DNA from: Octopus vulgaris
Lineage: Eukaryota
Direction: 5' to 3'
Length of the DNA stretch: 64,000 nt
NCBI GenBank assembly: GCA_951406725.2
Contig: OX597819.1
Span: 26,164,001 to 26,228,000, forward strand
Shown: in pieces, positions 13,435-49,748 of the stretch
Layout of the letters: each line of letters begins with the position of its first letter
Position numbering within the stretch: position 1 is the first letter of the stretch
Notes under the pieces: model-generated
What the model was told of the DNA's origin: nothing
Database searches by the model: none
What the model saw: the letters and a program-made list of their open reading frames with translations, nothing else
Program-made: the position numbers and the translations under genes

Positions 13435-13468
13435 TCCTTCTGAAGAGCGTAGGCTCGAAACATAAATT
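13435..13468 (+). ncRNA. Degenerate minimal hammerhead motif
   Basis: CTGAAGA-GC-GTAG-GCTC-GAAAC-ATA. Stem I is poor. Confidence 0.5.
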
Positions 13469-13619
13469 CTTTCACTTGTTTGCTATTCATACACCGGCCT
13501 TCGTCTTTTGTTTTTCTATAAATTTCTACTGTATTTATATCAGTTGAATAAAGTTACAACATGGTCTGATTTTCACGTTTTCTATTATTGTATTTAAAAA
13601 ACATTTTTTTTTTACAAAG

Positions 13620-16047: not shown

Positions 16048-18567
16048 AGGCATCCCCCCACACACATATTGTGGGTTTCAGAAAGATCAGTGTCACACAT
16101 TTAGTAAGGCTTAGTGCAATGCGGAGATCTCTGAACAATAATATTGTCTCTTGTGCTTTGGATTAGTTATAACTTAGTACTTCATGATTAGTAATATATC
16201 TCTGAATGCTCGTGTGTTTGTTTTTGATGCATATGTTGTTACCACCAAATGTGTACTTAAAATATACGTTGACATCCAAGATCGATTTGTAAAGCAGATG
16301 GAACTCCTGAGAAATTAATGAGGCGGCACATACATCAGTAAATTTGAGAGGTGAATAGTTTTTCATTGCATTTGAATGAAATATCCATATTGAATAGAAT
16401 TAGTACAAATGATAATACTGGCAACATAACAACCATTACCATTACGAACATAATCACTTCATTTTATCATCGATGTTGCTGTGCTAATGTAACATATAAG
16501 GTGTTATCGTGTTGCGACGATTATGAAATAGATCTCACTAAACTGTGCATGCGAGCCGGTTTCAATTTCCGATTGTTGGATTTTCATTTCCTTTTAGTTG
16601 GCAATGTTTTCCTTCTTTTTTTTATCATTATTTCACTAGAAGCATATTCGTTGTACAATCTCATTTCCTTTGAGCTAAGTAGTTGTGGCTCTCCATGAAA
16701 TCGTTAAATGAACACGACAAAAATAAATAGGTAGCTCTGAGAAGCAGAATTAATGATTGTTAAACAACAGCTCGTGTCAGTTATATAGTGAATAAACATT
16801 TTTGATGAAGAGCAGACATGATCCAGCTCAAATTATCAACGCAGTGGAAAGCGATGAACATTATGACAATGATCAATGACTAATACTGGGAATCAAAGAC
16901 TTCACTGTACTTACTGCAGTATTGAGAAGAGAAACATTAAATGTGGTTACAGTACTGCAACCCGAGTACGAAAAATCAAATCCCTAAATTCAAATAGTCA
17001 CGGGCGCCATCTGCATGGAAATCTAGAGGTATATCGTCCTGCTTTGAACCTTATAATTTCATATAGCACCGAGGCCGTCTTTGCTTTTCATCCTATCGCG
17101 ATCGATAAAATATGTGCGACATGAGCCCTAAGGTCGATGTAATCGACTAAACCCTTCCTTTTAAATTGCTTGCTGTGTCAAAATTTGAAACAATGTAATG
17201 AAAATTCTAATTTTCATACATTGTCTCCCATACTCAGTGAAATTATTTTTTAAAAAATCACTGAGTAATTAACCATGTTTGTTGTTGTTGATGCTTATTC
17301 TTAACAAACCGCGCAGTCAATTATCTATATTCATTTCAAGGTGCAACAGTTAATCTCATTGCAGGCCTTACATCTCATTTGCCAGGCGTTCATTAATATT
17401 AAATACATAATCCACATTCTAGAAACACATACTTTTTCCTGTTCCTTTCCACAACCCTTTCCTACACGCAACCACTTCATTTGTCTGCCAACAGGGCACT
17501 TAATTTTCATTTACAGTACTCCACCTATCGAAGGGAGATACTGCGAAGAACATAGAACCTGTAAGAGCAAAGTAACTTTTGCTCAGTTCGTAGCTAGGAA
17601 GCCGAAATTGTAAAATCAATGTCAACCTTTCCTTGTATATATTAACATGTGCTCTATAAAAAAAATATATTGAAAGAGTTTTCAATTTAATATTAAATGA
17701 TTTTCATTGTTAAATCGTTGGTGTCTGACGTTTGAGTTGTTATTTTTTTGTATTTGTATCTTTAGAATTGTCTGTTTTTTCTATTGCATATCAAAAAAAA
17801 AAAAATACCAGCATTATACCAGGTCACTTTTATGACGGTAACAAAATGTAAACATACAAAACTACAATAGCTGACTGAAAATATTTTAGTAACTATCAGC
17901 CAATAAAACAAAATTGACATTTTTTCTGTTCGTCATCTCCGCTAAATTGTGTACATGATCAAAGTAACTTCACTATTAAGTGCACACGTCATTAGGGTAA
18001 TAAATAATGGCTGCAACGTGAAATTGCAGTTGTAACCACTCACTGAATCGTGTCACTGACGTGTGTTTTGTTATTAGCCTGTGATAATTACCCTCAAAAT
18101 GGTCCTGAGCCGTAACTTGGAGGGCGTAGGTCCTTCGCAATTGTTTACTCGGCCGAGTGACTACTCGTGAATGAGAAATTTTGAAAGGGATCTCGCTGGG
18201 ACAATATTTTTTTTTCTTTTTCTTTCCTTGTCACTTTATGAGTAAAACATTTCTGTGATCAGAATATTGAAGATAAAATTAGCAGTCTCAATTAATTATT
18301 TCCTATGAGTCAGCAAAATTAAAAAGGGTGATGAATTAGGGAAAAGAAAAGAAAACACTATTAGGGTTTTTCTATATAGTTAACAAGTTTGCCTCATAAA
18401 CACACAACTATGCGTTCGACCCGGAGTCTCCTGACAGGGATCAAACGAGTTTAAACAATGAGTACATGGGATCTTTCGGTTTTCCTCCAGGACCAAAAAG
18501 TAAACAAAAGAATGACAGATGGTTATATAGAAACCTGAATGAGGACCCAATAATCAGGCATACTACG

Positions 18568-18825
18568 GTTTTATATTTAAATGAGGAATCATGTACATTG
18601 TTTACATTATTTACAATTAACGGATATTTGTCCTCATCCTGTTTGTTGTTAACACAAAGTTTCGGCTGATGTACCCTCAAGCCTTCATCAGGTGTATTGG
18701 GTAAATTTCGAACGGGGTTCTCATTCCTAAGGTATGTTTTGATGTTGTGGTTGTTATTCAGATCATTGCCTGGAATCAAACTCGGAATCTTGGGGTTAGT
18801 AGACCGCGATCTTAACCATATGCCC
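18568..18825 (-). mobile_element. tRNA-headed, hammerhead-bearing short retroelement, copy A
   Basis: Reverse strand reads GGGCATATGGTTAAGATCGCGGTCTACTAACCCCAAGATTCCGAGTTTGATTCC, then an AAC/AAT spacer and an HHR. Confidence 0.8.
18652..18695 (-). ncRNA. Minimal hammerhead ribozyme motif
   Basis: Reverse strand reads ACAC-CTGATGA-AGGCT-TGAGGGTACATC-AGCC-GAAAC-TTT-GTGT. Confidence 0.75.
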
Positions 18826-18834
18826 ACGTTTATA

Positions 18835-19071
18835 TGATGTAGCGGTCAAGAGTGCTGACTACTAACCCCTAGTGCTGTAAATTCTAGGTAGTGACCTGAA
18901 TAGTAATAATAATGATAATAATAACGACAACAACATTGAAAAATACCTTAGGAACGAAAACCTAGGTTCGAAATTTCCCCAAGACACCTGATGAAGGCTG
19001 AAGAGTGTAATAGCCGAAACGTTGTGTTAACAACAAACAAGATGAGGACAAATATCCGTCAATTGTAAATA
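18835..19071 (+). mobile_element. tRNA-headed, hammerhead-bearing short retroelement, copy B (inverted relative to A)
   Basis: Diverged head (GACTACTAACCCC), (AAT)n spacer, HHR, and the shared tail AACAACAAACAAGATGAGGACAAATATCCG. Confidence 0.8.
18984..19027 (+). ncRNA. Minimal hammerhead ribozyme motif
   Basis: ACAC-CTGATGA-AGGCTG-AAGAGTGTAA-TAGCC-GAAAC-GTT-GTGT, with palindromic AACGTT forming stem III. Confidence 0.82.
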
Positions 19072-19612
19072 ATACTACGTTGTCAGCAACTCTGATGATC
19101 CTGAGAGTCGTCAGCCTCCTCACTTATTTTCATAAGGCTTAAGAGTTAATACCGCTGACTACACAGAGATGCTGGGGAAACGTATGAGGCCCCGCGTCGA
19201 CAGAGTGCGCAAAGGAAGACCGTATTCTTTCCAACAAGACTCTGCGCCGTCTCATATGGCTTGGACAACAAGCGTGAATAAGTGCCAGTCTCGATGGTCA
19301 TGCTCTCCTCAAGACATGGCCTTCTAGCTCACCAGACTTCGATCCACTAGATTATTACCTATGGGGTATGGTTGAGAGAGAGACCACCATAACTAGCACA
19401 ATGTCCAAGATTGATAATTTGATTTGGACATGTCAACGCCCCCGATCCTTATTGAAGCTGACAGTGGTGTTTAACAGTGAATTCATTGAATAGGCGTAAT
19501 AAAATTATTCTCATTATTATTTGTGCCAATTTGTTTTCGAATGCAGCTGTTCTTTGATGAGCTTTGCGTCTTTTTCTAAATGCAACAAAAATCTGATGCA
19601 CATTGTATACAT

Positions 19613-48389: not shown

Positions 48390-49480
48390 ATATCAACGTT
48401 CGGTTTCTTCATTTTATAGATTAGATTTATATTAGTGCAGATCTATATTTAAGAACAAGTAAAAAAAAAAAACGCACTAGAATACCAATAAGAAACTTGG
48501 TGGAAATGTTGACCTTCTGTGTAGAAACTACCTACTTCAGTATGAACACTGATATATATCGACATATAATGGGTTCACCATTATCACCGATAATAGCCAA
48601 TATATATATACATGGAATACTTTGAGAATTTGGCTTTAGGATCAAAAACTTCTAAAACCAACCCTATAGCTGCGATATGCTGAGGACACCTTCATACTCT
48701 GTCTCCCACAGGAAGATGTCCAAGTGCTGTTAGATCATGTGAACTTCATAAAGCCATCCGTACTGTTCACAATAGAAAAAGAAAAAGACTATCAGCTAGG
48801 ATTCCTGGACGTATTAATAACACGCACCAAGTATGGATTCAGGACATCCGTATACCGAAAGCCAACCTTCACCAGACGATACCTCAATTTAAACTCCCAC
48901 CATCGATAAAGAGAAGGATTGGTCAGTGCCTAAAACATCGTTCAATGAATATGAGAAGCGATCGTGATATCCACCACGAAGAAATGATCAAGATCCGTAA
49001 CAATCTATTAAGCAACAACTACTCCAAAAGCATACTCTCCACTCCAATTATGAAGAAAAGGCCTCTATGTGAAAGGCCTCTCCTGAAAAGATATGAATGA
49101 TATGCGACCCATATGACATCAGGGTAATATTAAAAAGTAATACAACACTTCGCAAATATCTCCGAGTAAAACCACCAATAGAAGAGAATATGACTAAGAA
49201 CTGCGTGTACTCCATCCCGTGCAGCTCTTGCAGGTTATACAAAGGCGAAACATGCCACCCTCTCAAAATAAGGGTAGAGGAACACTGCAAAGCTGTAACA
49301 CGAGGCGATATTGATAAATCAGGTATACCTGATCATGTATGGAAAAATGGAAACCTCCCCTGTGAGATGAAGTTTAGATAATAGACAGAGAACACCACGG
49401 GAAAATACGAAAACTAAAAGAAGCAGCACATATGTTAGGACACAACAACCTCCTAAGCAGACCGAGTGCAGATATGAAGG
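48390..49480 (+). pseudogene. Penelope-like RT plus GIY-YIG endonuclease, disrupted
   Basis: MGSPLSPIIANIY, LRYAEDTF (YxDD site), FTIEKEKDYQLGFLDVLI, SVYRKPT..YLNLNSHH and VYSIPCSSCRLYKGET..LKIRVEEH. Confidence 0.92.
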
Positions 49481-49526
49481 AAGGATAGGAGAATATTATA
49501 TTTATAAGCCCCAAAATTCACTCCCT

Positions 49527-49748
49527 GGGCGTATGGCTTAGTGGGTAAGAGCGCGGGCTACTAACCCCAAGATTCCGATTTCGATTCCAGACCGTGACCT
49601 GAATAATATTAATATTAATAATAATAATAATAATAATATTAATAATAATAATAATAATAACATCGAAAAAATACCTTATCAGCAGAAACGTTGTGTTAAC
49701 AACAAACTAGATGAGGACAAATATCTGTGAATTGTAAATAATGTAATT
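49527..49748 (+). mobile_element. tRNA-headed element copy C, with the 5' half of the hammerhead deleted
   Basis: A box TGGCTTAGTGG, B box-like GATTTCGATTCC, (AAT)n, then ATACCTT joined to ATCAGCAGAAACGTTGTGTTAAC. Same tail as 18835-19071. Confidence 0.85.

Follow-up and report, generated by a model that had tools for sequence, protein, structure and literature searches.

Which kind of element gave rise to the inverted pair of hammerhead-bearing units at positions 18560 to 19079 of a 64,000-nucleotide stretch of Octopus vulgaris DNA (assembly GCA_951406725.2, contig OX597819.1, positions 26,164,001 to 26,228,000), and how was it inserted? This whole stretch is called the window below. Each unit consists of a tRNA-like head, an (AAT/AAC)n spacer and a body with a minimal hammerhead ribozyme. 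The original prediction took the pair for a non-autonomous, self-cleaving element that is driven by RNA polymerase III (Pol III) and mobilised by Penelope machinery. We propose, with a probability of about 0.6, that the pair was inserted in one event and represents the terminal ~290 bases of a Penelope/Poseidon-type element with a tRNA-like head in its pseudo-long terminal repeat (pLTR), that short Pol III RNAs were likely made from this head, and that they were likely copied from both ends of a staggered break by the protein of the parent element. Identification of the head and of the ribozyme rests on motif and alignment evidence; ARAGORN found no tRNA in the window, and Rfam found neither a tRNA nor a hammerhead in the region and 12 loci.

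The pair belongs to a large family. Loci with body motifs were sampled along contig 1 in genome order, with 82 loci in sample 1 (taken minus five duplicate loci and L144, L209 and L210) and 62 in sample 2 (from 100 listed places, 7 of them already in sample 1; 19 loci are only 800 bases long), 144 in total. The family consensus, built from 60 loci, has a 78-base head, the (AAT/AAC)n spacer and a 177-base body. The family is not due to chance, because a 20-mer of the body is matched exactly 12,406 times in the 2.8-Gb genome and the reversed control not once. At a match rate of 8/29, this corresponds to roughly 45,000 arms genome-wide, and the two loci held by an arbitrarily placed 200-kb sequence are of the same order of magnitude. 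The median non-CpG divergence of the family is about 4%. A search of sequencing runs with words of the unit gave 20 rows under six organism labels that hold at least half of the words; no RNA run was among those listed.

The unit is almost certainly the terminal part of the pLTR of an autonomous Penelope/Poseidon-type element, and hence a Penelope derivative. Some heads are preceded by sequence that reads as the end of a Penelope endonuclease. With the end of the open reading frame (ORF) alone as query, 29 further loci were found, and 21 of these run on into the head, on the same strand and 29 bases past the stop. In the parent, the ORF and its stop are followed by 29 nt, the tRNA-like head, (AAT)n, and the initial ~155 nt of the ORF, which include the minimal hammerhead. 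A full-length, decayed copy (L207+L291) carries successively an inverted short arm, body 119-177, directly joined to the ORF N-terminus, a reverse transcriptase (RT), the endonuclease, head, spacer and body. Because body 119-177 runs directly into the ORF in this copy, the body corresponds to the ORF start and the unit to the end of the pseudo-LTR, which forms a partial tandem that holds the hammerhead, with body 119-177 before the ORF and head plus body after it. The RT in L207 matches PF00078 past the cut-off (E 5.8e-8), in an ORF frame that is interrupted by stops in this copy. The endonuclease appears to be of GIY-YIG type with CCHH and without the Neptune-type linker (extra CX2-5CxxC), as judged from motifs seen by eye and compared with the clade description in the available part of PMC8557442; Pfam gave no GIY-YIG match. 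The endonuclease part is matched by 18 of 133 database candidates, and relatives carry PF00078/PF26215; a PDB search with the parent protein returned weak RT matches only. The window itself contains a copy of this parent:

48445..49745, plus strand: long copy of the parent Penelope element, 5'-truncated and decayed, with RT end, GIY-YIG-type endonuclease, head (49527-49604), spacer, and body with the ribozyme deleted

A free-standing SINE (short interspersed element) that borrows Penelope enzymes was considered and rejected, as the unit belongs to the Penelope element itself. For the same reason mobilisation by Penelope machinery is supported more strongly than had been proposed. The unit is short, non-coding, dispersed, present in high copy number and flanked by target-site duplications (TSDs), as SINEs are. 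It lacks the 3' end derived from a LINE (long interspersed element) or the simple-repeat tail: its 3' end is the start of a Penelope-like element (PLE) ORF, and its (AAT)n is internal. Another PLE family, which is young (L057, L062 and others), has a cysteine-rich, Neptune-like linker and a 781-aa open frame in many copies; a pattern search found no minimal hammerhead downstream. This GIY-YIG family was rejected as partner, since none of 20 of its loci match the unit. At L080, headless tandem and inverted copies of the spacer plus the first ~310 bases of the ORF were observed.

The recipient of the insertion in the window is a decayed relic, which we take to be Tc1/mariner-like from its motifs. 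The following features make up the pair and its surroundings:

18380..19490, plus strand: decayed relic, presumably Tc1/mariner-like, recipient of the insertion, on both flanks
18560..18567, plus strand: left copy of the 8-bp TSD, a repeat whose site is empty in a related mariner copy
18568..18605, minus strand: Penelope-type tail of the left (long) arm, body ~140-174, not present in the right arm
18568..18746, minus strand: left arm body, the 5' start of the parent's ORF (ATG 18724-18722)
18652..18695, minus strand: left minimal type I hammerhead that retains the core but not the helix III palindrome (CG to CU)
18747..18755, minus strand: left (AAT/AAC)n spacer, short
18756..18825, minus strand: left tRNA-like head, A box deleted
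18818..18836, no strand: palindrome axis, with a 2-nt loop AC at 18826-18827 derived from the parent's leader
18828..18901, plus strand: right tRNA-like head, B box damaged
18902..18931, plus strand: right (AAT/AAC)n spacer
18932..19073, plus strand: right (short) arm body, ending at body position 142, start codon decayed to ACG at 18954
18984..19027, plus strand: right minimal type I hammerhead with intact core and CG palindrome, cleavage predicted between 19023 and 19024
19072..19079, plus strand: right copy of the TSD

The 8-mer ATACTACG is found at 18560-18567 and at 19072-19079, as an 8-bp TSD around the pair. The two head-to-head units align as an inverted pair with 84.7% identity over 163 bases of body. 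The mariner copy L314, one of three related copies aligned, is uninterrupted at the insertion point and constitutes an empty site; the other two are also colinear across it. These data bear out the original prediction of a single insertion as an inverted pair. Excision of the insert with one 8-mer gives, as predicted too, a reading frame in which ..IRHTT is followed by LSATLM.., but this restoration is only local because the relic is broken at other places. The two units had also been described as sharing a common tail. Their likeness holds, whereas their 3' ends are unequal: the right arm ends at body position 142 and the left has a tail of ~35 nt more. At 8 bp, the TSD of this pair falls below the mode of 12-13 bp in the family, and the first two of its nucleotides also belong to the end of the right arm. 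With 17/192 and 16/222 sites changed, the arms are older than the family median. Both heads are decayed (the left is without an A box, the right has a broken B box), and the ribozyme core is retained in both arms, intact in the right one, with the helix III palindrome missing in the left.

Are such pairs formed in one event? Among the 144 loci, 96 are head-to-head pairs, 48 are unpaired, none is tail-to-tail and 6 have a tandem neighbour. In 79 of 86 classifiable pairs one arm has a long 3' end (165-177) and the other a short one (130-160), with 5 short-short and 2 long-long pairs (p 8e-17 versus free choice). These 79 pairs show the arrangement typical of Penelope, i.e. a 30-40-nt tail at one end and an inverted 5'-truncated copy. 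A TSD of at least 8 bp is present at 49 of them, with a mode of 12-13 bp (shuffled mean 1.0). Derived changes common to sister arms number 47, which is 3.2 times the shuffled rate and is reached in none of 2,000 shuffles. In the available parts of the literature, a Poseidon protein is shown to cleave both strands and to extend them, with internal initiation on the RNA at the two sites between which the tail lies (PMC11167929), and the formation of PLE inverted repeats and tails is called open (PMC8557442). We infer that the two ends of a single break each serve as primer for a separate cDNA, starting at different sites, and that these cDNAs are then joined. Alternatively, a second, independent insertion could have targeted an earlier one in each pair, or the DNA could have been duplicated later by fold-back. 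The 15% difference between the arms in the window would fit this, as would the small share of derived changes common to sisters (47 of ~385 per arm set) and the uncorrelated ages of sister arms (rho 0.03, 73 pairs). Nevertheless one TSD encloses both arms, the ends are strictly long plus short without any tail-to-tail pair, and a short arm copied by fold-back could not have acquired the tail, so that joined cDNAs from two ends are preferred and this alternative is hardly credible. The loop orientation is suggestive only: AC precedes the short arm in 6 cases and the long arm in 1, GT in 1 and 1, and 6 are ambiguous.

Two further observations concern paired copies. L006 and L097 are unpaired copies in which the leader, immediately before the head, has a flipped loop (GT), as though the second arm of a palindromic pair had served as template. 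At L209, L210 and L211 the same long inverted pair is found twice ~100 kb apart, likely a segmental duplicate.

The tRNA-like head has an A box at position 8 and a B box at 53, with the spacing of a tRNA. Aligned end to end with tRNA genes of this genome, 41-47 of 73 positions are identical to six genes. Local alignment with 20 tRNA genes of six isotypes ranks Arg best (z 8.2 and 7.9 for two Arg genes), Ala being equal end to end. Exact counts step down at the head, from 12,406 for the body to 5,629 for the head, 960 for the leader (-29..-10) and 579 for the ORF (-227), with 0 for the controls. Of 91 arms that reach the first five bases of the head, 68 stop there (36/47 in sample 1, 32/44 in sample 2). 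The stop rate is 0.055 per nt at the head start versus 0.002-0.006 in the body, head interior and ORF, i.e. 10-20 times higher, and short head-started copies are ~4- to 18-fold commoner than copies that extend upstream. A Pol III start just upstream of the head is probable, and would be the simplest cause of this pile-up of 5' ends.

The claim that the unit is Pol III-driven thus has indirect support from the boxes and the stops, but RNA reads show no start. In two raw RNA-seq runs of a related label, neither a pile-up of starts or ends nor a rise in depth was found at the head, where reads are undercounted because the head of the reference copy is only 86% like the family. Several other points weigh against our proposal. 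Family reads are ~1:1 on both strands in these runs, the strandedness of the libraries being unknown. In 40 arms the leader retained at the 5' end varies between 0 and 7 nt, without one defined start. The calibration of exact counts is rough, with match rates of 15-79%. The unit is without T4, which is uninformative as the sampled ORF part likewise has none. In the available part of PMC11167929 the start sites are strand-independent, unlike the asymmetry of the octopus pairs. Finally, 65 head-start arms and 22 parent-linked arms are of equal age and have no fixed differences. The arm comparison thus does not show an independent short lineage, and the short RNAs may come straight from the pLTR of the parent.

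This equal age is also what would be seen if Pol III had no part, all copies being 5'-truncated products of a long Penelope RNA, with snap-back or template switching at the leader palindrome as the cause of the pile-up and the head a dead tRNA-derived insert in the pLTR. We consider this unlikely, although it deserves more weight than any other alternative. The 5-bp leader/head palindrome lies exactly at the pile-up, fold-back junctions are present in 15 of 35 head-start arms of long/short pairs, the RNA-seq data contain no start, and 5' truncation with an inverted copy is the norm in PLEs (PMC8557442, available part). Against it, the other 20 of these 35 arms are without fold-back, and the consensus retains both boxes at tRNA spacing, with stops that coincide with tRNA position 1. 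A body hairpin of like shape stops only 13 of 206 arms; this control is imperfect, because the leader hairpin is stronger (-5.4 versus -3.5 kcal/mol as RNA).

Does the ribozyme play a role in these insertions? The consensus has the core, helices I and II and palindromic helix III of a minimal type I hammerhead, with every feature of the minimal hammerheads of metazoan PLEs in the available part of PMC4209133 (bulged base after A9, G10.1-C11.1, 4-bp helix I, palindromic 15.2-16.2). In the fold of lowest predicted energy, helices I and II are preserved but the core is mispaired. Core and palindrome are kept in 55 of 194 whole ribozymes. In sample 1, 9 of 43 body 5' ends fall at body 90-96, near the predicted cut (a cut after body 92 would leave ends at 93). 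Such features could point to an independent self-cleaving tRNA-SINE, similar to Sm-alpha or retrozymes, with a ribozyme that processes the RNA, possibly via dimers or circles. The pile-up at the cut was a post hoc observation and failed the pre-set replicate (2/36, p 0.41, both internal deletions), and the GTTAAC palindrome at the predicted cut is a confound. A tandem neighbour at only 6 loci, compared with the 96 head-to-head pairs, does not favour tandem copies, for which a count had been suggested. Since the two ribozymes of a head-to-head pair are on opposite strands, no cis dimer is possible. No circular-RNA back-joint was present among the raw-read joints listed. The stems of 194 arms decay neutrally, with 4 compensatory, 79 one-sided and 98 broken of 1,705 cells. 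Lack of covariation had been named beforehand as refuting the original prediction and, taken literally, it does so; it says little on cleavage by the master, because neutral decay of one family gives the same result either way. The lower rate of change in the ribozyme core (2.7% versus 4.0%) is not read as selection, because base composition differs. As the unit moreover belongs to the parent element, a self-cleaving SINE of this kind is improbable, and the self-cleavage that had been proposed is not borne out. In the available part of PMC11167929, the PAc ribozyme needs protein and is dispensable for insertion. The octopus ribozyme is likely inherited and idle in these insertions.

Other hammerheads and targets were noted in passing. 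Motifs like minimal hammerheads, of other families with different stems, are present at 13440-13475 of the window and in L007, L034, L047 and L062. L031:2307-4763 is a young (98%) tandem array with 5.6 copies of a 359-bp unit and two further inverted copies. Every unit of this array has a type I hammerhead whose helix III is palindromic, and the array resembles a non-LTR retrozyme. In L075, L083 and L089, 3' ends that are presumably Dong/R4-like, a name given from their motifs, lie in the (AAT)n spacer of the unit upstream of the body, and the spacer seems to be their target.

We can propose the following route for Penelope-derived pairs. Pol III would start just upstream of the head, and the parent's protein would bind the ORF-start region of the RNA and prime internally, so that the RNA would need no defined 3' end. 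One DNA end would prime at body ~140-151 and the other at ~177. The two cDNAs would join at their 3' ends, aided by the 5-bp leader palindrome, to give whole palindromes; if one cDNA is truncated, joining would occur by microhomology. The ribozyme would be an inherited passenger, because a cut would separate the head from the priming sites.

Octopus tRNA SINEs named OK, OR1 and OR2 were reportedly described by Ohshima and Okada in 1994, which would place tRNA-derived heads in the presumed host group. OR2 is a CORE SINE (PMC4758252), unlike the hammerhead unit; for this source and those that follow, comparisons refer to the available parts. Penelope/Poseidon PLEs such as PAc of Anolis (PMC11167929; PMC8557442) share with the octopus family an RT, a ribozyme over the ORF start in the pLTR, a 30-40-nt tail and an inverted 5'-truncated copy, and apparently also a C-terminal GIY-YIG-type domain. 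The short priming site in the ORF is at ~117-129 nt in octopus and 111-118 in PAc. Unlike PAc-type PLEs, the octopus family has a tRNA-like head with A and B boxes in the pLTR and is dominated by short head-started copies, and its ATG is upstream of the ribozyme and not inside it. A tRNA head is not reported with the minimal hammerheads of PMC4209133, where opposite-strand ribozyme pairs 100-700 bp apart were already noted in Schistosoma. Sm-alpha and Sj-alpha of Schistosoma (PMC6765202) similarly have a Pol III promoter followed by a hammerhead. They form tandem repeats, their ribozyme is active and no PLE parent is named, whereas the octopus units are head-to-head pairs with a minimal ribozyme and an identified parent; head-to-tail arrays as in retrozymes and Sm-alpha are not a feature of this family. 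Non-LTR retrozymes (bioRxiv 10.64898/2026.07.22.740005) and non-autonomous Chlamys, e.g. MRC1 (PMC8557442), are likewise non-coding derivatives of PLE pLTRs or 3' ends, but they are defined by tandem arrays, and the terms 'tRNA' and 'Pol III' occur 0 times in the available text of the former.

Inverted truncated copies, tails, pLTR ribozymes, opposite-strand ribozyme pairs and non-autonomous PLE derivatives are already in print, as is a Pol III promoter with a hammerhead in Schistosoma. A literature search, with Repbase, Dfam, the 1994 octopus SINE paper and the supplements of PMC4209133, PMC8557442 and PMC11167929 outside its scope, found no tRNA-derived promoter in the pLTR of an autonomous PLE, no tRNA SINE with a named PLE partner and no cephalopod case. 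The 2026 octopus repeat annotation has 0 matches to hammerhead or ribozyme in its text and one supplement. Tentatively, a Penelope element may have captured a tRNA gene fragment in its pLTR and may encode its own Pol III SINE. This would be the first tRNA-SINE with an identified Penelope partner, and it could be re-amplified from palindromic copies, in which the leader hairpin would restore the palindrome; the insertions, numbering tens of thousands, would then record asymmetric two-ended priming as the source of PLE inverted repeats. Repeat libraries may class such Penelope-derived copies as ordinary tRNA SINEs. From the strict long plus short rule and the TSD mode of 12-13 bp, a precise prediction follows that applies to the in vitro system already available. 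It is generally assumed that SINEs rely on LINEs. If our proposal is true, a Pol III unit that arose inside the terminal repeat of a Penelope element and is mobilised by the protein of that element would represent a new way for SINEs to originate.
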